Positions 5,686-55,939 of a stretch of DNA of 64,000 nt are shown here, piece by piece (the stretch's first letter is position 1; every line of letters starts with the position of its first letter). Made by a program: the position numbers and the translations under genes. This DNA comes from a virus (lineage: Duplodnaviria; Heunggongvirae; Uroviricota; Caudoviricetes), in the IMG/VR virus record IMGVR_UViG_3300037502_002518, positions 5,712 through 69,711 of that record; one strand, given 5' to 3'. The notes beneath the pieces are model-generated. The model saw only the letters and a program-made list of their open reading frames with translations. It made no database searches and was not told the origin of the DNA.

Positions 5686-5901
5686 ATGTTTAAAATGAAC
5701 AAAAATGAAAACAAAACAAACACGTTACTACTGGTAGTTATTGCAGGTGCAATCCTATTCTTTGGGATTTTTGCAATGAACAAGTTTAATGAAAGCGAAG
5801 AAGAAAAAGAACGAGAAGAACGATATGAACAGCTAGAAAAACAGAAAGAAGAGATTGATAAAGTTAACGAGTATTTAGACCTTAGAGAAGAGCTTGAATA
5901 G
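5686..5901 (+). CDS. small membrane protein (one TM helix followed by an E/K-rich tail)
   Basis: hydrophobic stretch LLLVVIAGAILFFGIFAM. Confidence 0.5.
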   Translation: MFKMNKNENKTNTLLLVVIAGAILFFGIFAMNKFNESEEEKEREERYEQLEKQKEEIDKVNEYLDLREELE

Positions 5902-19426: not shown

Positions 19427-19798
19427 ATGCTTCTTTTATATATGAGTTTGACTGGGAACGTGAGAGAGTTTGTTGAAAAAACAGGCTTGAAAAATAGAGA
19501 GATAGAGCCTACAAATCCATTCTTTGAAGTTAATGAGGACTTTGTAATTGTAGTTCCATCATATGAAGGATATATAAATGAAGAAGTTGAAGACTTTTTA
19601 TCATATAAAGACAATTCAAAGTTTTTGAGAGGTTTTGCATCAAGTGGAAATTTGAATTTTGATGAACTATTTTGTGTGAATGCAAAGCAGTTGTCAAAGA
19701 AGCTCAATAAACCTCTTTTTTTTAAGTTTGAATATAGTGGTACAGACAGAGATGTTAATTTGTTTTTAGAAAGGTTGGGAGAAATTGAAAAAGGTTGA
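19427..19798 (+). CDS. nrdI: NrdI flavodoxin-like protein
   Basis: N-terminal [13 protein letters not shown] (flavin-binding loop), size, position. Confidence 0.75.
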
Positions 19799-20525
19799 GC
19801 TAAAAAAGGGGAAAGAAAGTGAGAATTATTTTCACTTAAATAATTTGTTAAATATTCCAAAAGATGGAAAGATACAACTAAATAAAGACAAAGAGGCTGT
19901 AAAAGAATATTTCCTTGAGTACGTGAATCCAAATACAATGTTCTTTCATTCATTAGAAGAAAAGTTGGGATATTTGATTGAAAATGATTATATCGAAGAA
20001 GATATGATTAACAACTATAGCAAGGAATTCATTAAAGACTTATTTAAAAAGGCATATGACAAGAAGTTTAGGTTTAAAAGTTTTATGGGAGCATATAAGT
20101 TTTATTCCCAATATGCTATGAAGACAAATGATGGAAAGTGGTTCTTAGAACGATATGAAGACCGTGTTGTCTTTAACGCTTTAAAGCTTGCAATGGGAGA
20201 CGAAAGTTTAGCAGATTCGCTGGTTGAAGAAATGATAAACCAACGTTATCAACCTGCAACTCCAACATTTTTAAATGCAGGGAAAAAGAGACGTGGAGAA
20301 TTTATTTCATGTTTCCTGCTTACAATTGATGACTCTATGAATTCAATTGGACGTGCAATTAATTCTGCTTTGCAACTATCGAAGCGAGGTGGAGGGGTAG
20401 GAATCGGATTATCTAACATTCGTGCCAACAATGACCCAATCAAAGGTGTTGAAGGTTTATCGGACGGTGTTGTTCCTGTCATGAAGTTGTTAGAGGATTC
20501 GTTCTCATATGCCAATCAACTGGGT
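19785..20525 (+). CDS. nrdE: class Ib ribonucleotide reductase alpha subunit NrdE, exon 1
   Basis: [24 protein letters not shown] motifs; ends ...SYANQLG. Confidence 0.8.
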
Positions 20526-20848
20526 TGACATACAGGCTCAGTATAAAACGGGTTAACTGCTGGAACTTCTTTAGAGCTTAATGCGCCACAACGCAACTGG
20601 AAACGGTAATCGTAAAGGCTTAAAAAGTATTAAGATTAGAAAATCAGCATCCACTCCTCTAAGTGTTAAAACATAAGAGGAAGGTTCAACGACTAAGTGA
20701 CAGCAAAAGTGATTTTGTTGTCCGAATCCGTTAAATGTTTAATAAATAACACTCTTTATTAAATATGAAATATATAGTCTGTTCTTTAGGGAGACCTAAA
20801 GAGTGTAGCAGAAATGACTGCACCCCACGTTAGTGGAGTAACAAAAAG
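20526..20848 (+). mobile_element. group I intron 1 in nrdE (323 nt, no ORF)
   Basis: R-like AACGACTAAG and S-like ATATAGTCTG P7 elements; 5' exon ends U, intron ends G; splicing restores ANQLG|QRSGSGVTYL. Confidence 0.7.
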
Positions 20849-21265
20849 CAAAGGTCTGGTTCTGGAGTAACGTACTTGAATATCTTCCACCCAGATGTGA
20901 TTGACTTTCTTGCAGTAAGAAAAGAGAATGCAGATGAAAAGGTTAGAATTAAAACTTTATCTCTTGGTTTAGTTGTCCCAGACAAATATTATGAGCTTGT
21001 AAAAAACAATGAGAATATGTATCTTTTCTCTCCTTATGATGTTGAAAAAGAATATGGAAAACCTTTCTCATATATTGATATTACAAAAGAATATGACAAC
21101 ATGGTTAATAATAAAAATATTCGTAAATCTAAGATTAAAGCGAGAGAATTAGAAACTGAAATTAGTAATCTTCAAAATGAAAGTGGTTATCCTTATATTA
21201 TTAATATTGACCATGCAAACAAAGCCAACCCAGTTCATGGAAAAATTATCCAGAGTAACTTGTGT
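20849..21265 (+). CDS. nrdE: NrdE exon 2
   Basis: ...YLNIFHPDVIDFL ... SNLC. Confidence 0.75.
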
Positions 21266-21542
21266 AAACAAATGCACCTTTAAGTAGGAATGCTTATCGA
21301 AAATCCTGTTAAACGGGGAAACCCTCACTTGAGACAATCCCGTGCTAAATTTATTTGATACATTATGTTTTTTTAAATAATAAATGCCGAACGACTATCC
21401 CACTATGGGAGTACACTACAAGCCTTTGGTGGTGGAAAAGCAGGACATCCAGAACGGATGATGATATAGTCTGCTCTATATGGTGACATATAGCTGTGGT
21501 TAGCCCACGCTCTAATTTTAGCGAGATTAGAGGAACAAAAGG
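21266..21542 (+). mobile_element. group I intron 2 in nrdE (277 nt, no ORF)
   Basis: AACGACTATC and ATATAGTCTG elements; junction restores SNLC|VEIFQV... with the expected 23-residue spacing to DISCNLGS. Confidence 0.7.
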
Positions 21543-22571
21543 GTAGAAATTTTTCAAGTGCAAACGGAGTCAAAAATCAATGATGACCAAACTTATGAAG
21601 TTTTAGGTAGTGATATTTCTTGTAACCTTGGGTCAACCAATATCACAAATTTAATGGAGTCACCAAACTTTGGAAAATCAGTAGAGGTTATGACAAGAGC
21701 ATTAACAAATGTATCTGATATGTCAAGCATTGATTCAGTCCCATCAATAAAAAATGGTAATGATAGATACCACTCTATTGGTCTAGGAATGATGAACCTT
21801 GCTGGGTTCTTAGCAAAAAATCAAATTCATTATGGTAGTGATGAATCACTAGAGTTTGTTGACAAATACTCTATGCTTTTAAATTATTGGACTCTTGTTG
21901 CAAGTAATAAGATTGCAATTGAAAGAGATGAGAAGTTCTATGAATTTGACAAATCAAAGTATGCTAGTGGGGAATATTTTGATGAATACTTTAAGATTTT
22001 AGAACTTGATTTTAAACATGACAAGGTTAAAGGTTTGTTTGGAGGTGTCTATATTCCAACAATGAAAGATTGGAACGTGTTAAAGGATGCTGTTATGACT
22101 TATGGCTTATACTCAGCGTTTAGGCTTGCCACACCTCCGACAGGAAGTATCAGCTACATCAATGAAGCTACAGCTTCAATTCATCCAGTCATTTCAAGAA
22201 TTGAAGAAAGAGTTGAAGGTAAACGTGGTAAAGTTTATTATCCTGCTCCTTATCTTTCAGAAGAAACAATTCCATATTACAAGTCAGCATATGATATTGA
22301 CCAAAGAAAAATTATCGATGTGTATGCTACAGCACAAAATCATATTGACCAAGGTTTGAGTATGACATTATATACAAAATCAAATTTTAATGAAGGTCTT
22401 TATGAATGGAAAGTAGGAACAGCTTATCCTACAGAGAAAACGACAAGAGATTTAAACATTTTCAGAAACTACGCTTGGTCTAAAGGGATTAAGTCAATTT
22501 ACTACATTAGAACGTTTACCGAAGATGGCGATACAATTGGTGCAAACGAATGTGAAAGCTGTAGTGTATAA
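21543..22571 (+). CDS. nrdE: NrdE exon 3 (includes C-terminal CESC)
   Basis: DISCNLGS, C-terminal redox cysteines. Confidence 0.75.
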   Translation, partial: VEIFQVQTESKINDDQTYEVLGSDISCNLGSTNITNLMESPNFGKSVEVMTRALTNVSDMSSIDSVPSIKNGNDRYHSIGLGMMNLAGFLAKNQIHYGSDESLEFVDKYSMLLNYWTLVASNKIAIERDEKFYEFDKSKYASGEYFDEYFKILELDFKHDKVKGLFGGVYIPTMKDWNVLKDAVMTYGLYSAFRLATPPTGSISYINEATASIHPVISRIEERVEGKRGKVYYPAPYLSEETIPYYKSAYDIDQRKIIDVYATAQNHIDQGLSMTLYTKSNFNEGLYEWKVGTAYPTEKTTRDLNIFRNYAWSKGIKSIYYIRTFTEDGDTIGANECESCSV

Positions 22572-22584
22572 GGGGGGAAATGAT

Positions 22585-23538
22585 ATGACAGAAGTTTTTA
22601 AAAGTATTAATTGGAATGAAATTGAAGACCCAGTTGATAAAATGACTTGGGACAAACTGATTAGTCAATTTTGGATTGACACAAGAATGCCAATTTCCAA
22701 TGATTTACCAGACTGGAGAAAGTTAAGTGATAAAGAAAAAGATTTGTTCAATAAGGTATTTGGAGGGCTAACAGCCCTTGACACCTTGCAGTCAGAAGAT
22801 GGAAATGAGCAGATTAAACAAGATGCAAAGACAAAGCATGAAATTGCTGTTTACAACAATATTCAATTTTTTGAGACAATTCATGCTAAAAGTTATAGTT
22901 CAATTTTTAGTACACTTTGCACCCCTAAAGAAATCAAGGAAATTTTTAAATGGACTGAAGACAACGACATGTTGCAATACAAAGCAAAAAGAATTAAAGA
23001 CATCTACCTAAATGGAACTTCTATGCAGAAGAAAATTGCTTCAGTGTTTCTAGAGTCGTTCCTATTCTATAGTGGTTTTTATACACCATTATACTATTTT
23101 GGGAAAGGAAAAATGGTAAACGTTGCAGAAGTAATTAGATTAATCTTGCGAGATGAGTCATCACATGGTGTTTTTATCGGACACAAATTCAACTTAGAGT
23201 ATAAAAAAGCTTCAAAAGAAGAACAAGAAGAAATCAAAAATTGGGCTTACGAATTACTATATGACCTATATAATAATGAAGTTAAATATACAGAGTATCT
23301 TTATGACGAACTTGGATGGACAGAGGACGTTAAAACATTCTTAAGATATAATGCAAACAAAGCATTAATGAACTTAAAGTTGCCAGTTTTGTTTCCAGAT
23401 TCAGCAGAAGACGTTAATCCAATTGTCATGAACGGTATTTCAACCAGTACAAGCAATCAAGACTTCTTTAGTAGTGTGGGTAATGGTTACTTGTTAACAC
23501 CTGTAGAAGATATGAAAGATGAAGATTATAACTTTTAG
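22585..23538 (+). CDS. nrdF: class Ib ribonucleotide reductase beta subunit NrdF
   Basis: ferritin-like di-iron motifs (ESFLFYSGF, RDESSHG); RBS AAGGGGGGAAATGATATG. Confidence 0.8.
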   Translation: MTEVFKSINWNEIEDPVDKMTWDKLISQFWIDTRMPISNDLPDWRKLSDKEKDLFNKVFGGLTALDTLQSEDGNEQIKQDAKTKHEIAVYNNIQFFETIHAKSYSSIFSTLCTPKEIKEIFKWTEDNDMLQYKAKRIKDIYLNGTSMQKKIASVFLESFLFYSGFYTPLYYFGKGKMVNVAEVIRLILRDESSHGVFIGHKFNLEYKKASKEEQEEIKNWAYELLYDLYNNEVKYTEYLYDELGWTEDVKTFLRYNANKALMNLKLPVLFPDSAEDVNPIVMNGISTSTSNQDFFSSVGNGYLLTPVEDMKDEDYNF

Positions 23539-49324: not shown

Positions 49325-49943
49325 AGAGATTGAGATGGAGTTTTTAAAGAAATTAAACAAAATTAGAGGCACAATGTCTGATAGTGACCTCTTGAATAAC
49401 TTGAGTGCTATTCAAGAAATGAATTGGGACAGTGACTACTCTATCTTGAATAACATCTCTCATTCACGACTAGAAAAAATCCTCAATGGTGAGTATGAGA
49501 TTGCAGGGTCAAAATTTAAACGAGATGACTGGGTTACAGTTGAATGGTCTGATTTTGAACACACTACACACAAAGTAAATTCTTGTGTGAATGAACTTGT
49601 TTCAATCAATTTAGCTTACCATTCTGGTGTGTCTAACCATTTACCCCCTGCAGATATTGTAAGATATGCAACAAGTGAAGAAATTAAACAAGAGAAATCT
49701 AGAGCTTTTTGGTATCAGATTGGAAGAAAACCATATGAATATAAAGTCGGTGATATTGTTAAATATAAAGGGTATATTCGTATAGTTAAAGAAGTGAAAA
49801 CGGGTGGTCATGGGAATACAGACCTCATTTTGTCTGAGAGTAATGAAAAACACAATTTTTCATATCACATTGAGAATGTATACTCTGATGATTTAAAGAT
49901 TGTTTCTACAGCAGAAAGACGTTTGGATTGGGAGGAGAAATAA
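49311..49943 (+). CDS. hypothetical protein (210 aa)
   Basis: ORF. Confidence 0.45.
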   Translation: MKKNEEIEMEFLKKLNKIRGTMSDSDLLNNLSAIQEMNWDSDYSILNNISHSRLEKILNGEYEIAGSKFKRDDWVTVEWSDFEHTTHKVNSCVNELVSINLAYHSGVSNHLPPADIVRYATSEEIKQEKSRAFWYQIGRKPYEYKVGDIVKYKGYIRIVKEVKTGGHGNTDLILSESNEKHNFSYHIENVYSDDLKIVSTAERRLDWEEK

Positions 49944-50002
49944 TGGCTAAATTAATATTTAGATATGGAAGTATGAATTCTGCAAAGTCAGCAAATTTAA
50001 TT
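49943..50002 (+). CDS. tdk: thymidine kinase, 5' fragment/exon (MAKLIFRYGSMNSAKSANLI; P-loop), boundary approximate
   Basis: TK N-terminal P-loop read directly; ATG overlaps upstream stop (TAATG); frame terminates 12 codons later. Confidence 0.6.
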
Positions 50003-51517
50003 ATCTCCCGAAAGAAGTCGCCCTCTTCAAGCGTGTAAAAGGCGCATTCAGACGGTAAGGGGGGAGATGAATTTAGGTCAAGCGGTAGATTAAAACTATC
50101 TTTCAATACTTTTTGTGTCAGTTCATAAATTGTACCAGAAAAGCTATTGATATAATTTTTTATTTGACACTTATCAATCACTTCTACTAAGATATTTGGG
50201 AATTCGATTAACTTGGGAACTATTTCCACTGATGTTCTCATCTAATTAGTATATACTAAGAATATGACAAAGGAGGTGACATATAAAATGTTAAAAGCCT
50301 ACAAATATCGACTATATCCAACCGAAAGTCAGAAAGAGTATTTTTCCAATTGTTTTGGTTGCGCTCGATTCATTTACAACAAAATGCTCAGCGACAAAAT
50401 CGACCACTATAAAGAAAACAAGAAAATGCTTTATACCACGCCTGCTAAGTACAAGAAAGAGTTCCCGTTTTTGAAAGAGGTGGACAGTCTAGCATTGGCA
50501 AATGCTAGACAAAATCTGGAAAGAGCTTATAAAAACTTTTTCCGAGACACGTCCGTCGGTTTTCCAAAGTTCAAATCCAAGCACAAGTCGAAATCGAGCT
50601 ACACCACTAACAATCAAGGTGGAAACATTCGTATAGAATACGGAAAAATCAAACTTCCGAAAATCGGATTCGTAAAACTGAAGCAACATAGAATGTTTGA
50701 TGGGGTTATCAAATCTTGTACGATTTCTATGAATAAGTCAGAAAAGTATTTCATTTCTATTCTAGTAAAATCAGAAGAGAAAGAAATGGAAATCACCGAA
50801 AGAAAAATTGGGATTGATTTAGGTATTTCTGATTTTGCGATTACCACGAACGATTTAGGAGAATCCGTTAAATATGATAACCCAAAGTATTTATATAAAT
50901 CAGAAAAGAAACTAAAAAAATACCAACGTTCTTTGTCTCGCAAACAAAAAGGCGGAAAAAACCGCAATAAAGCTCGTATTTAAGTCGCCAAAAAACACGA
51001 AAAGATTGCCAATCAAAGGAAGGACTTCTTGCACAAACTAACTAAACAGATTACGGACGAAAACCAAGTCATCGTAATCGAAACGCTGTCCAGTAAGAAC
51101 CTGATGAAGAACCACAAACTGGCAAAAAGCATTGGTGATGTCAGTTGGTTTGAATTCGTCCGTCAACTTGAATATAAAGCGGAACAAAAAGGTCGTACAA
51201 TTATCAAAGCGGACAGATTCTATCCATCCAGTCAGATTTGTTCCGCCTGTGGACATCGAGATGGAAAAAAAGGCATTGCATATACGAGAATGGGATTGTC
51301 CTAGTTGTGGTGAACACCTTGACCGAGACATCAATGCCAGTAAGAACCTCTTGGCATTAGCCAAGTAAAAGAAAACATATGAGGCAGGGACTGCCTTTTG
51401 AGCCTACCCCATATCCGATTCCTCTGTCTACATGACATTCGTGCAGACAAGAATGGAGTTAGTAGGAAGCCCCACTTTAAAATTTTAAGAATTTAAGTAG
51501 TGGGCAGTTCACTCATG
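50003..51517 (+). mobile_element. IS200/IS605-family (IS1341-like, tnpB-only) element or IStron-like intron inserted in tdk (boundaries approximate)
   Basis: 1.5-kb insert between tdk halves: 260-nt 5' non-coding, TnpB ORF, 150-nt 3' hairpin-rich non-coding; no TnpA. Confidence 0.6.
50264..51368 (+). pseudogene. tnpB: tnpB (OrfB, RuvC-like RNA-guided nuclease family) disrupted by an in-frame TAA (50981-50983) and a frameshift at an A7 run (51265-51271)
   Basis: N-terminal YKYRLYPT; RuvC-I GIDLGI, RuvC-II VIVIETL, zinc finger CSACGH...CPSCG, Ruv[13 protein letters not shown]. Confidence 0.75.
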
Positions 51518-52027
51518 CAACATTACAACTATGAAAGCGGTGGAAAAAACACATTAGTTTTCAAACCATCTGTTGATACAAGAAGTGACAAAGTAACATC
51601 TCGTGCTTTATATACCGAGATAGAAACAGATTATATTGTTGGACAGAAGGAATATAACTCAATGTTGCCTATTGTCTTACATCATATGCCTAGAGTTGTA
51701 TTTGTTGATGAATCCCACTTCTTAGACAAGCAACAGATTGAAGAATTAGCTATCATAGTTGACAAAATTGGTGTAACCGTCCAAGCTTTTGGTCTTATGA
51801 CAAACTTTAAAGGAGAACTCTTTGAAGGAAGTAAAAGACTTGTTGAATTATCAGATGTTGTAGAAAGGGTTCGTTCTGAGTGTACAGAGTGTTCTAATGA
51901 GGGAATTATGAATGCAAGATATATTGGTGGCAAACTACAGACAGATGGAGATACAGTTATGATTGGTGCTGAAGAAAAGTACAAAGTCTTATGTAGACGT
52001 TGCTACATGAAAGCTATGCAAGAATAA
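51518..52027 (+). CDS. tdk: thymidine kinase, 3' fragment/exon (...YNYESGGKNTLVFKP ... C-terminal zinc ribbon CTECS...CRRC), boundary approximate
   Basis: TK core and C-terminal Zn ribbon. Confidence 0.6.
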   Translation, partial: QHYNYESGGKNTLVFKPSVDTRSDKVTSRALYTEIETDYIVGQKEYNSMLPIVLHHMPRVVFVDESHFLDKQQIEELAIIVDKIGVTVQAFGLMTNFKGELFEGSKRLVELSDVVERVRSECTECSNEGIMNARYIGGKLQTDGDTVMIGAEEKYKVLCRRCYMKAMQE

Positions 52028-52123: not shown

Positions 52124-55100
52124 TTGTTAGATTCAAGTAATTTTGCAAGCCTGCATTGCCACTCGCATTTTTCGCTTCTCGACTCAATCATGAGTCCAGA
52201 AGACATTGTAAAACAAGCAAAAGAATTGGGCTATAAGGCTGTGGCTGTAACGGAACACGGAAATATGCATTCATTTATTGATGGATACAAAGAAGCTAAA
52301 AAGCAGGGGATTAAGTATATCTTTGGGTCTGAAGTTTATGAGACAGACGACATGGATTATAAAGAGTCAGATGCAAGTCGATACCACTTGCTTTTGTTAG
52401 CTAAAAATGAGACAGGATTAAAAAACTTATTCAAAGTTGTGTCTGAGGGTTCGACAAGAGGTTTCTATGGTAAGCCTCGTATTGATAGAGAACTACTATC
52501 GGAACACTCAGAAGGTCTTATTGCAACAAGCGCTTGCCTTGCGAGTAGATTGATGAGGTTGCTTCAACAGGGCTATTGTCCATGTTGCAAACAAAGCAAT
52601 GGTGAACATAAAGAGTCGTGCGACAACGATGAAGTGTTTGAACCAAAGTGGGAAGAAGCCAAAGAAGAATTACAAAAATATAAAGACATTTTTGGTGACG
52701 ATTTCTACATTGAAATTCAATCACATGATACTCACGACCAAAAGATTGGGAATCAGCGTATTCTTCAATTGGCAAAAGAAACGGATACAAAATTTATTTT
52801 GACATTTGATGCTCACATGCCAGATGGCAGTGAAAAAACGCTTGATATTCATAGACGTTTTATTGAAGTTAGTCAAAAAGGTCGTGAAGTTGGAGAGACT
52901 TATATTGGTTGCTACCAACAAGATATGGAAACGGTTTATGATACCTTAGTCCCTCAAATTGGACAAGAAGATTTAGAGCAAGCTATTTTAAATACTGGAG
53001 CTTTAGCAGATTCATGTGAAGACATTGAATTGGACTTAAACAGACCACCAATTATGCCTCATATTGAATTCCCAAAAGAGTATAAGTCAGATGTTGACTA
53101 CTTAAAAAAGCTTGTCAATGATGGGTGGAAAGAAAGGGAAATCCACAAAAAAACAAAAGAAGAACAAAAGGTTTATAAAGAACGTGTTCTTCATGAGATG
53201 GACATTTTAGAAAAGCTTGATTATGCAGGTTATTTCCTTATCATTCACAAATTTATGAATGAATTTAGAAAGCAAGGTATTCCATTAGGCTGGGGACGTG
53301 GGAGTGCGGCTGGGTCTTTAGTCCTGTATTTAATTGGTGTAACCAATGTAGATAGTGTTTATTGGGATTTAGATTTCTCTAGGTTTGCCAACTTAGGAAG
53401 GCGACAAATGGCTGATGTTGATATTGATATTTCAAAAGCCAAACGTGGAGAAGCCTTAAAAATAACAGATGATTTATTTGGAAATAAAAAAGTTGCACAC
53501 TTGTGTACATTTAATTCTTTCTCACCAAAAGTAGCAATTAAAGACTTGGGGAAAGTATTTGACCAAAGCGAAGATAGTCCATATTTTGGAAAGATTCCAT
53601 ATTCAATGAGGGAACGTGCATCTGGACTAATCACTGATGGTTCTAACATTGAAGACGTTTTAGAAGCATCTGGTGAGCTTAGAAGAATCAAGGAAAAGTT
53701 TCCACTGTGGATTGAATATGCACAAGAACTTCAAAACTTACCTAAATCTGTAGGTTCTCATGCTTCTGCAATCATCATTGCCAACGAAGACATTGTAAAT
53801 TATGCACCTGTTATGTATAACAAAGATGGTCGTGTAATGATGCAAGTTGAAATGGGGAATGCAGAAAAAGACTTGGGACTGGTGAAGTTTGATTATCTTG
53901 GACTTGAGAGTTTAGACGTGGTAAATGAGACTTTATCTCTTTTAGGAAAAGGGTGGGAAGATTTATTTGACATTCCATTTGACGATATAAGTACATTAAA
54001 AAACATTTATGCGAAAGGTAACACACTAGGAGTTTTTCAAATGGAATCACAAACCCCAAGAAAAATATTTGAAGACATGTATGAGGGGATTCCAGAAGAT
54101 AAATTTTCTATCAATGATGTTGTTGCTGTAAATGCTTTAAACAGACCTGCTGTATTGAGTCTTGGAATGCACAACAACTACATCAAAGGGAAAAGAGACG
54201 AATCAGAAGTGTCATACATTCACGAAGACCTTAGACCTATCTTAAATGAGACATATGGTGTTCTCTTATATCAAGAAGAAGCTTTGAATGTTTTTAGACT
54301 TGCAGGATTCCCAGAAGAAGAGGTAGACGTTGCCAGAAGGTGTCTGCGTGAGGACACAATGGTACACATGTCTGACGGAACACAGAAAAAGATAAAAGAT
54401 ATTAAAGTTGGAGATTATGTGTTGAGTTACAATGAGCGTGGAGTATCTGAACCAAAAAGAGTTAACAAAGTTTTTTTCAATGGGAAAAAGTATGTAAACA
54501 GATATTTGACAGAAGAAGGACATGAGATATTTTCAACAAAAGACCATCACGTTTTAGGTCTTAATGGATTCGACAGGATTGAAAATTTTAAAGTTGGTGA
54601 CTGTTTAATGACACCAAAAGAAAGTGTTCTCCCCCAATATGTTCCAACAATAATAAAAAATATCGAAAACAGCATTGAATTTTGTGATGTATATGACATT
54701 GAAGTTGAAGATAACCACAATTATATTGCGAATGATATAATTGTTCACAACTCAATTGGTAAGAAGATTCCAGAAGAGATGGACAAACTATACGACAAAT
54801 TTTCTAGTGGTCTTAAAAAAATAGGATGGAATAAGTTGCAAATAAAGGAAACTTGGGAATTGATTGCTTCACAAGCGACTTACAGCTTTAATAAATCACA
54901 TTCCGCCAGCTATGCAATTCTGTCCTTTGTTATGGCTTATCTAAAAAACCACCATCCAAAAGAGTTTATAACCGCCTTATTGACAGATAAAAGGGGAAAC
55001 TTTGAAGATACATCTCTGTATATTGATGAGGCAAACAGAATGGGGATAAAGGTTTTAGAACCAAATATAAACACATCCAATTTGGCATACACTATATCTG

Positions 55101-55939
55101 ATGAAGGTATTGTATTTGGACTAAGCTCAATTAAGGGTGTTGGCTCTAGTGCAGAGACAATTGTCGAAGAACGAAATACAAACGGTGAATTTAAAGATTT
55201 AGAAGACTTTCTTTCTAGAGTCAAGTCAGACAAGACAGTCACAATCGCACTAATTAAATCTGGTGCTTTTGGACAGGAGAAAAATGAGCTTTTAAAAAGA
55301 TACTTTGAATTTATTTACACTCCTACTTTGTGGAAAGAGAGAAAAACATCTCCATCTAGGAAAGAGTTGCAGAAATTCATTCCAGACTTATCACTAGAGG
55401 ACTTTAAATCTATGACAAAAGAGGATAGAATGGACACATTCAATAAATATAAACATGAGGTTTACAAAAAGTCTGAAGAAAAAAGAAAAATGAACCAATG
55501 GAATGACTTTAAAGACAAGTATATCTCTCATGATGAGTCTATGTATGAGTATGAAACATTGTCAATATTCATCAATGGTAATCCATTTGACCCATACAAA
55601 AACATTATCAAACCATTTGATAAATTTAAAGATGGTTCAGATAAAATACTTGTGGCAGGAACTATTACTGATATACAGAAAAAGAAAGATAAAAACAATA
55701 ACCAATTTGCTTACATTAGCCTATTGACTCCATATGATGGAATTATAGAAGGTCTTGTGTTTGCAGGAGTATATTCAGAAGTTTCTGACATGATTAAAAA
55801 GGGGAACAATATTGTATGTATCTCTAAAAAGAGTGGAAGTCAATTCATACCCAAGAAGATGAAATCTTTTGATGACTGGAAAGAGGTGATAAGACGAAAG
55901 AAGGAAAGAAAAGAAAAGATTGAAAAACTTAAGAAGTAG
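52124..55939 (+). CDS. DNA polymerase III alpha-like (DnaE-type, N-terminal PHP domain) replicative polymerase, contains a mini-intein
   Basis: PHP motif HCHSHFSLLDS...VTEHGNM; DnaE motifs; TTG start after AAGGAGGAATT. Confidence 0.75.
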   Translation: MLDSSNFASLHCHSHFSLLDSIMSPEDIVKQAKELGYKAVAVTEHGNMHSFIDGYKEAKKQGIKYIFGSEVYETDDMDYKESDASRYHLLLLAKNETGLKNLFKVVSEGSTRGFYGKPRIDRELLSEHSEGLIATSACLASRLMRLLQQGYCPCCKQSNGEHKESCDNDEVFEPKWEEAKEELQKYKDIFGDDFYIEIQSHDTHDQKIGNQRILQLAKETDTKFILTFDAHMPDGSEKTLDIHRRFIEVSQKGREVGETYIGCYQQDMETVYDTLVPQIGQEDLEQAILNTGALADSCEDIELDLNRPPIMPHIEFPKEYKSDVDYLKKLVNDGWKEREIHKKTKEEQKVYKERVLHEMDILEKLDYAGYFLIIHKFMNEFRKQGIPLGWGRGSAAGSLVLYLIGVTNVDSVYWDLDFSRFANLGRRQMADVDIDISKAKRGEALKITDDLFGNKKVAHLCTFNSFSPKVAIKDLGKVFDQSEDSPYFGKIPYSMRERASGLITDGSNIEDVLEASGELRRIKEKFPLWIEYAQELQNLPKSVGSHASAIIIANEDIVNYAPVMYNKDGRVMMQVEMGNAEKDLGLVKFDYLGLESLDVVNETLSLLGKGWEDLFDIPFDDISTLKNIYAKGNTLGVFQMESQTPRKIFEDMYEGIPEDKFSINDVVAVNALNRPAVLSLGMHNNYIKGKRDESEVSYIHEDLRPILNETYGVLLYQEEALNVFRLAGFPEEEVDVARRCLREDTMVHMSDGTQKKIKDIKVGDYVLSYNERGVSEPKRVNKVFFNGKKYVNRYLTEEGHEIFSTKDHHVLGLNGFDRIENFKVGDCLMTPKESVLPQYVPTIIKNIENSIEFCDVYDIEVEDNHNYIANDIIVHNSIGKKIPEEMDKLYDKFSSGLKKIGWNKLQIKETWELIASQATYSFNKSHSASYAILSFVMAYLKNHHPKEFITALLTDKRGNFEDTSLYIDEANRMGIKVLEPNINTSNLAYTISDEGIVFGLSSIKGVGSSAETIVEERNTNGEFKDLEDFLSRVKSDKTVTIALIKSGAFGQEKNELLKRYFEFIYTPTLWKERKTSPSRKELQKFIPDLSLEDFKSMTKEDRMDTFNKYKHEVYKKSEEKRKMNQWNDFKDKYISHDESMYEYETLSIFINGNPFDPYKNIIKPFDKFKDGSDKILVAGTITDIQKKKDKNNNQFAYISLLTPYDGIIEGLVFAGVYSEVSDMIKKGNNIVCISKKSGSQFIPKKMKSFDDWKEVIRRKKERKEKIEKLKK
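54341..54751 (+). mobile_element. mini-intein (137 aa, no endonuclease domain) in the polymerase: CLREDTMVH...IIVHN followed by S
   Basis: N-terminal Cys, block B TKDHH, C-terminal VHN+Ser; flanking extein ARR|SIGKKIPEEM matches the conserved DnaE RRAMGKKKPEEM region. Confidence 0.75.

Follow-up and report, generated by a model that had tools for sequence, protein, structure and literature searches.

A stretch of 64,000 nucleotides from a virus of the Caudoviricetes (IMG/VR record IMGVR_UViG_3300037502_002518, positions 5,712 to 69,711 of that record; this whole stretch is called the window below) carries an insertion element of the IS200/IS605 family inside the thymidine kinase gene (tk) of the phage, and the tnpB nuclease gene of this element is broken by a nonsense codon and by one extra A in a homopolymer. 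The best explanation, to which we assign a probability of about 0.78, is that a homing-type TnpB nuclease residing in tk is decaying after its fixation under relaxed selection. The original prediction, made from the letters of this DNA only, had recognised the damaged tnpB gene but missed its context, i.e., that the gene belongs to an insertion element interrupting the phage tk. Phage tnpB genes are common and insertion sequence pseudogenes are routine; the element is a case of ordinary mobile-element decay and changes nothing in the existing knowledge of TnpB, of IS200/IS605 elements or of phage biology. It is unusual only in its resolution: intact and broken alleles differ solely by the two knock-outs, and the sequence itself reveals the transposon-adjacent motif (TAM), the guide and a target allele that has no TAM and is presumably resistant. 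It may be seen as catching an RNA-guided homing-type nuclease just as it is being lost and as a small case for a gain-fixation-degeneration cycle in phage TnpB, and it provides a TnpB/omega-RNA pair that could be repaired (Q232, A6) and whose predicted TAM is TTTAA.

The tnpB reading frame consists of three pieces, and the Pfam profile coordinates are contiguous across both breaks. The first piece (50264-50980) matches HTH_OrfB_IS605 and positions 2-74 of OrfB_IS605, the second (50984-51262) matches positions 77-119 of OrfB_IS605 and 1-37 of Cas12f1-like_TNB, and the third (51273-51365) matches positions 39-60 of the latter profile (E-values 1e-21 for HTH_OrfB_IS605, 1e-12 and 2e-9 for OrfB_IS605, 8e-13 and 4e-8 for Cas12f1-like_TNB). 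Thousands of TnpB homologues are present in a large protein collection; the best 120 listed are almost all proteins of 359 aa encoded by single open reading frames (ORFs), and the closest among the matches listed (76-89% identical) come from Alkalibacterium, Trichococcus and uncultured sources. The repaired TnpB of the window aligns end to end with these 359-aa homologues, starting from MLKAYKY, and therefore the true start is the ATG at 50288, with AAGGAGGTGA ahead of it as a ribosome-binding site, rather than position 50264 proposed originally. The catalytic RuvC residues are encoded at 50816-50818 (D177), 51080-51082 (E265) and 51327-51329 (D347), and the zinc-finger cysteines C318, C321, C337 and C340 form the usual CxxC...CxxC pattern; all of them stand in invariant columns of the alignment. 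The only column invariant in 15 aligned homologues at which the repaired protein deviates on its own account is I231, and this isoleucine is common to the copies L013, L014 and L019.

The RuvC D-E-D triad and the zinc finger are thus present in the conceptual translation and can no longer be joined in one polypeptide, as the window holds no continuous translatable tnpB ORF. The first lesion is an in-frame TAA, which was correctly located by the original prediction and reads ...NKARI-stop-VAKKHEKI. The second was likewise rightly identified as a frame shift at a homopolymer: the run comprises exactly seven A, the downstream frame is +1 relative to the upstream one, and if one A is removed from the A7 run, the window translation equals the reading of intact relatives at the zinc finger. 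Truncation at codon 232 would remove E265, D347 and the zinc finger (i.e., RuvC-II and RuvC-III would be lost), and the frameshift by itself would part the two CxxC pairs and remove D347. Judged from these domain positions, each lesion should singly abolish cleavage. The further claim that the TAA replaces a conserved lysine codon does not hold. The column of codon 232 is variable across the 15 aligned homologues (valine in ten, isoleucine in two, and leucine, lysine and alanine once each); at the DNA level, some Alkalibacterium copies have AAA or AAG at this place and others GTG, and L013, L014 and L019 read ATT CAA. With glutamine as a further variant, the ancestral codon is CAA (Gln), from which TAA arises by a single C-to-T transition. 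The A6 tract underlying the second lesion is lineage-specific, the corresponding G-K-K being encoded elsewhere as GGC AAG AAG, GGT AAA AAG or GGG GAA AAA.

Related assemblies were recovered by exact-protein look-ups of neighbouring genes. They include a sister lineage that is ~99% identical to the window (contigs L004, L092, L093 and L094) and a still closer relative, L095, from JGI 3300018412. All sister or close contigs covering the homopolymer site (L004, L092, L093, L095) have A6 there. The only sister contig that reaches the first lesion is L092, which reads ATT CAA GTC. Over the 693 nt shared in this region (50820-51512), L092 and the window differ in exactly two features, the base at 50981 (C in L092, T in the window) and the extra A. 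As L092 carries CAA and A6 with no other difference over this length, the comparison strongly supports that both lesions are derived, single-step and very recent changes, and the very recent inactivation suspected originally is borne out. The search for an intact copy in related phages, which had been proposed as a check, succeeded in part: L092 lacks both lesions, but in its contig tnpB starts only at a junction at 50820. Compared with the copy of the L001 type, the 3' half of tnpB has 51 synonymous and only nine non-synonymous codon differences, and 56 of the 71 base differences fall on third positions. With 51 synonymous versus nine non-synonymous codon differences, tnpB appears to have been under purifying selection until recently.

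The 5' part of L092 (L092:1-320) is a 90%-identical variant of the upstream gene (window 49647-49935) with a 15-nt tandem duplication, joined directly to the position equivalent to 50820. No sequence homology exists at this junction (GGCTCAATAG followed by TAGGTATTTC), which probably represents a real deletion of 884 bp. The apparent deletion removes tk exon 1, the left end of the element, the Arc-like ORF described below and tnpB codons 1 to ~177, and this suggests a dispensable locus. A protein that at first sight looks like a 97% identical intact copy (P0001) is not usable as an intact phage copy, because its contig L001 is a mosaic or an assembly chimera with another IS copy: it is identical to the phage as far as ~50830, continues as an intact copy with 12-13% divergence (L001:1184-1887), and has a flank other than tk at its end. 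Note that the switch point of L001 and the L092 junction both lie within the conserved stretch coding for GIDLG (RuvC-I), which suggests either recombination between IS copies at this place or assembly chimerism.

The boundaries of the element (Table 1) were defined by homology across copies, i.e., one in a phage-like contig (L002) and others in Alkalibacterium and Carnobacteriaceae genomes (L010-L016, L019, L038, L070). TTTAA directly abuts the left end in six of six independent insertions (window, L002, L010, L011, L012, L016), and the right end ...GTTCAC is found in 13 of 13 copies, followed by unrelated sequence in every one of them. There is no target-site duplication, and removal of 50001-51512 restores a tk sequence like that at the empty site of the phage contig L005. 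The order within the element is left end with hairpin, antisense Arc-like ORF, tnpB, and a structured RNA that includes the right end. No Y1 (HUH) TnpA is encoded in the window element, unlike in L010, which has a Y1 TnpA gene directly upstream of tnpB (Pfam Y1_Tnp, E 3.6e-43), and in L016, whose upstream sequence aligns with it; the window element is therefore a non-autonomous member of a family with autonomous relatives in the likely host genus.

The structured RNA has the layout of an omega-RNA (also called reRNA). Its consensus fold, based on seven copies, comprises 64 pairs, three of them with compensatory changes; a long-range helix connects TGGGATTGTCC in the coding region with GGGCAGTTCA at the very end, so that the right end forms part of the omega-RNA fold, and the RNA overlaps the last ~80 nt of tnpB. 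Its guide would be the tk flank TCATGCAACATTAC..., and the predicted guide sequence occurs once in the window.

As for the claim that only two lesions separate the locus from an intact one, it is accurate as far as the TnpB ORF is concerned. Elsewhere in the element, the Arc-like ORF, the left-end hairpin and the omega-RNA likewise depart from their relatives. In L002, L011 and L012, the left end forms a stem of 10-11 bp (TCTCCCACTT/AAGTGGGAGA; z -2.1 to -4.4), whereas the corresponding window sequences (TCGCCCTCTT/AAGGGGGGAGA) contain two mismatches and fold no better than shuffled ones (z -0.36); the left ends of L010 and L016 also fold weakly. Homologues of the antisense ORF are a gene of 44 aa predicted in L002 and ORFs of 45 aa in L011 and L012 (the latter ending ...ELIRKGLE[KR] before the stop). 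The window and L001 share a gap of 1 nt at CAATA-CTTTTT (~50109), four codons before the expected stop, and the frameshifted ORF reads through the left end into tk antisense to 49906, giving 111 aa instead of ~47. In the window omega-RNA, two pairs are broken, and two single-base indels affect positions that do not vary among six relatives. These three kinds of departure are older than the tnpB lesions, since they are common to the sister alleles, and may be either damage or tolerated variation. Matches of the Arc-like ORF to Pfam RHH_1 are weak (E 0.008 and 0.14) and below the cut-off. Arc-like ribbon-helix-helix ORFs adjoining TnpB have been described before, with their function unknown (PMC10690162). 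In the TnpA-less copies L002, L011 and L012, the ORF is kept at the place occupied by TnpA in L010 and L016.

The insertion has split tk at codon 20. The 5' ORF enters the element and stops after 31 aa; the frame from 51513 (...MQHYNYESGGKN...) belongs to a 170-aa ORF matching Pfam TK. The length of the element is a multiple of three, and its removal restores the tk frame. The joined gene reads ...SAKSANLIMQHYNY... (...ANLIMQHYNY...) and aligns without gaps to uninterrupted thymidine kinases, the closest of which (P0122) is 73% identical; the unusual P-loop GSMN(S/A)(A/S)KS is normal in this clade. The related phage that is the source of P0122 (contigs L005-L007) has the same gene order, i.e., RNase H, deoxyribosyltransferase, tk and Pol III alpha. 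Its empty tk site is AACTTGA followed directly by TTATGCAACATTAC; that is, CTTGA precedes TTATGCAAC at the place where the window has the TTTAA TAM. At L005:3770-3790, the CTTGA at the TAM position arises via synonymous changes, and the L005 target mismatches the predicted guide at position 2, where it has T for C, and again from position 16 onwards. The tk of L005 would thus probably escape cleavage by the TnpB of the window element. As the element contains nothing by which it could be spliced out, the interrupted tk most likely has no function. A phage that has genes for thymidylate synthase, dihydrofolate reductase, deoxyribosyltransferase and ribonucleotide reductase as well can tolerate such a loss.

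TnpB, guided by the omega-RNA of its own element, is known to cut TAM-flanked vacant sites, after which recombination re-installs the element, and TnpA moves the element as single-stranded DNA (PMC10055086, PMC10690162). In the present case, the element inserted 3' of TTTAA at codon 20 of tk in a low-GC phage. The host of this phage is probably Alkalibacterium or another member of the Carnobacteriaceae, a suggestion that draws only on the similarity of the IS copies. The ancestral TnpB, with a guide taken from the tk flank, would have cut vacant tk sites (TTTAA followed by TCATGCAACATT...), e.g., in co-infecting phages, and the element would have been copied back into the cut sites by recombination, resulting in homing and retention. 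With the element fixed in the phage group, no TnpA at hand and no cleavable target left, selection on the nuclease would have lapsed and decay set in: Gln232 was lost through the CAA to TAA transition, and the A6 tract, made by synonymous lineage-specific changes, became A7 through a +1 slippage independent of the TAA. Every close relative in the sampled population carries the element, and the sole related uninterrupted tk found, that of L005, lacks the TTTAA TAM. Relaxed selection is the most likely cause of the decay because the element is fixed, the uninterrupted related tk is TAM-less and TnpA is absent.

This succession resembles what is reportedly described by the Goddard and Burt model, a gain-fixation-degeneration cycle of homing endonuclease genes. 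As with phage homing endonuclease genes, a selfish nuclease sits in a gene of nucleotide metabolism and is apparently lost once no vacant target is available, and a related phage possesses a target variant that would not be recognised (CTTGA instead of TTTAA). Unlike in homing endonucleases, the target is read by a guide RNA and a TAM rather than by the protein, and the transposon family of the window element can move by TnpA acting in trans.

Several observations weigh against this interpretation. A vacant tk allele of the window type (TTTAA followed by TCATGCAAC) was not found, but the collections are incomplete; pattern scans of JGI metagenomes for the vacant tk site and for the TAA/CAA site returned no match and are uninformative, the collection being one without the contig of L091, a known carrier of the TAA. 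The sister allele L092 may itself be 5'-truncated. The four tk differences between the lineages are all synonymous, which would not be expected for a long-dead gene. Sequence divergence is clustered, with four differences in 64 nt (51514-51577) beside the element, and a second cluster of 14 differences in 334 nt of the polymerase gene (52993-53326) falls entirely on third codon positions; long identical stretches lie between the clusters. Such clustering indicates mosaic recombination among related phages, and import by recombination from tk-intact relatives would be sufficient to explain the synonymous pattern. Finally, the sole substitution that distinguishes the window from L092 is a nonsense change; only 5.6% of random substitutions and 2.1% of transitions in the tnpB ORF create a stop. 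Pure drift explains such a change slightly less well than positive selection for inactivation does, but the reasoning is post hoc and carries little weight, since the locus was picked for being broken.

Selection for inactivation is accordingly the first alternative to be weighed. TnpB could have been harmful to the phage, by cutting replicating or co-infecting genomes, by the cost of its expression or by toxicity, and knock-outs would then have been favoured. Over 693 nt, the window and L092 differ twice, and each time the change is indeed a knock-out; the chance of a single random substitution being nonsense is only 0.02-0.06. On the other hand, a locus flagged for being broken will show knock-outs in any case, a homopolymer indel is the commonest spontaneous mutation, and the rest of the window contains no self-target (TAM plus guide). 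Moreover, one knock-out would have sufficed, and a second lesion is what drift after the first predicts. We consider this explanation unlikely. A variant of it combines selection with continued activity of the element: the defective element would persist as a guide-only passenger, its omega-RNA, still conserved in structure and with a guide directed at tk, being loaded by TnpB of the host, the element would be moved by the TnpA of the host, its own nuclease would have been silenced by selection, and rival phages with vacant tk would still be cut. The host TnpBs considered for this role are the 80-89%-identical proteins of an Alkalibacterium-type host. The chances of this combination are slim.

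Decay under relaxed selection presupposes that the lesions are real, and the original prediction had offered sequencing or assembly error as an explanation. Homopolymer indels are a classic type of error, and other samples contain the same sequence with A6. Nevertheless, both TAA and A7 are present in a 73-kb contig of the Logan assembly SRR11566350 (L008/L090) and in a 117-kb contig of JGI 3300035670 (L091), which are identical to the window over 5.5-8.6 kb except for a single-nucleotide polymorphism at 50511. These two may be one sample assembled twice, so that together with the window they stand for at least two datasets and not necessarily three; the lesions are reproduced in at least one dataset independent of the window. 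Among 49 homopolymer runs of at least seven bases in the window, only the run in tnpB (51265-51271) coincides with an ORF switch; the other 48 cause no frame break, as they lie within a single open frame (three of them inside the intact 1,271-aa polymerase) or outside any long ORF. Furthermore, homopolymer errors do not account for a C-to-T change to TAA. As the lesions recur in other assemblies and other long homopolymers break no frame, a sequencing or assembly error hiding an intact gene is unlikely in the extreme. The polymorphism at 50511 is A in the window and T in L090 and L091, and changes Gln75 (CAA) to Leu (CTA) in the tnpB frame of the window. This missense change would have arisen after the inactivation and would look like drift in a dead gene. 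Exact look-ups of the truncated TnpB products of 231 aa and 239 aa found no record, because L090 and L091 differ by one residue.

Phase-variable or programmed expression, in which slippage at the A tract (at the DNA, transcriptional or ribosomal level) toggles TnpB, was a further suggestion, and it fares no better. Natural populations of this phage group do contain A6 as well as A7 alleles. The tract is, however, specific to this lineage and absent from other copies, the 359-aa homologues being single ORFs; the TAA lies 284 nt upstream, blocks a full-length product and makes slippage irrelevant; and A7 has so far been seen only together with the TAA. A conserved tract toggling an otherwise intact ORF, as expected of a phase-variable locus, is not what the copies display, and we regard the suggestion as very improbable. 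Classic -1 frameshifting at A AAA AAA, as on the slippery site A AAA AAG, was ruled out, as the required shift is +1. Recoding or read-through of the TAA was rejected as well: TAA is the commonest terminator in the window and ends 25 of the 47 ORFs of at least 150 codons, tnpB included. No tRNA genes were found in the window.

The least probable alternative is that of an IStron-like element which splices itself from the tk mRNA, leaving tk functional and the element silent: it would account for an insertion inside a protein-coding gene with a length divisible by three, for the Arc-like ORF (present in some IStrons), for the purely synonymous tk differences and for a phage that uses group I introns in nrdE, but an Rfam search of 49850-51650 with E-values as high as 10 detected no group I or group II intron (the two nrdE introns of the window are recovered by the same model, with 84 and 52 bits), a group I intron would need a terminal G that is missing from all five equivalent 3' junction positions, the left 283 nt of the element are filled by the hairpin and the antisense ORF, and the sister copy L002 sits in intergenic DNA.

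The closest known group comprises the IS200/IS605 TnpB-omega-RNA elements (ISDra2, IS608, Geobacillus IS605, and the TnpB-only derivatives of the IS1341 type). The window element shares with them the three-domain TnpB with its zinc finger (CxxC...CxxC) and RuvC D-E-D triad, a TAM of 5 nt that immediately precedes the left end, the lack of a target duplication, a predicted omega-RNA extending over the 3' end of tnpB and the right end with flanking DNA as the guide, and relatives with Y1 TnpA. Subterminal hairpins are a further feature of the group; the left one is strong in L002, L011 and L012 and weakened in the window copy. It differs from these examples in its location in a phage tk, in the antisense Arc-like ORF in place of TnpA, in its freshly formed tnpB pseudogene and in its TAM, TTTAA rather than TTGAT or TTAC; the absence of TnpA is common in the family. 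With IStrons (CdISt1, CboIStron; PMC10690162), it has in common that a TnpB element lies within a protein-coding gene and that the omega-RNA spans the junction between element and exon, and with some of them the Arc-like ribbon-helix-helix ORF. Unlike IStrons, it has no detectable group I ribozyme and no G at the 3' boundary, and its left part consists of the hairpin and the antisense ORF. Without ribozyme and boundary G, the element may disrupt tk instead of being spliced out. TldR-type repressors are nuclease-dead TnpB derivatives that keep a full-length ORF and RNA-guided DNA binding. The window gene resembles them in being a TnpB-family gene that, as read from its sequence, would lack cleavage activity; in contrast to TldR, its ORF ends prematurely at codon 232 and has a frameshift, and nothing points to a product that is retained.

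Among GenBank phages, TnpB is widespread (429 records matched), and the closest phage protein is that of Clostridium phage c-st (61% identical); a megablast of the region against the same phages gave no match. No second copy of TnpB was found within the 64-kb window. IMG/VR scans with sequence patterns across each lesion and with the TK protein gave no match, and a homologue search with the C-terminal half of TnpB returned no fragments of the window type.

Table 1. Features of the insertion element and of the interrupted tk gene (window coordinates).
Feature	Coordinates	Strand	Basis or remark
Whole IS200/IS605-family element, 1,512 bp, TnpB only, no TnpA	50001..51512	+	Homology boundaries across copies
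TTTAA TAM, insertion target	49996..50000	+	Directly 5' of left end
Left end with subterminal hairpin, weakened in window copy	50001..50075	+	Fold compared with shuffles
Antisense Arc-like (ribbon-helix-helix-like) ORF preceding tnpB, with a frameshift close to its 3' end	50096..50241	-	Homology to ORFs of L002, L011, L012
tnpB pseudogene, 359 codons if repaired	50288..51368	+	Pfam domains, homologues, invariant columns
Lesion 1, nonsense TAA, codon 232, between RuvC D177 and E265	50981..50983	+	CAA in sister L092
Lesion 2, A7 run, one A above in-frame A6, splits zinc-finger/TNB domain	51265..51271	+	A6 in sister contigs
Omega-RNA (reRNA) scaffold over tnpB 3' end and right end, 5' limit approximate	51290..51512	+	Consensus fold
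Predicted omega-RNA guide TCATGCAACATTACAACTAT, first bases of tk flank, length assumed from family	51513..51532	+	
tk 5' fragment, MAKLIFRYGSMNSAKSANL plus first base of Ile20, cut by insertion	49943..50000	+	ORF, empty-site alignment
tk 3' fragment, TC plus ATG CAA ... to stop, intact ORF	51513..52027	+	Pfam TK positions 19-176, E 1.5e-27

The phage contains other selfish elements. Its gene for the large subunit of ribonucleotide reductase (nrdE, 19785-22571; RNR_N, lgN and barrel domain) consists of three exons separated by two group I introns at 20507-20801 and 21256-21493 (Rfam, 52.5 and 84 bits), and the gene for the small subunit comes next (22525-23538). The Pol III alpha gene (52124-55939) carries an intein according to a precomputed annotation (Pfam Intein_splicing) and is a further selfish-element hotspot, adjoining tk. 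In L005 (4461-10245), the polymerase is instead split by genes with faint matches to the HNH family.

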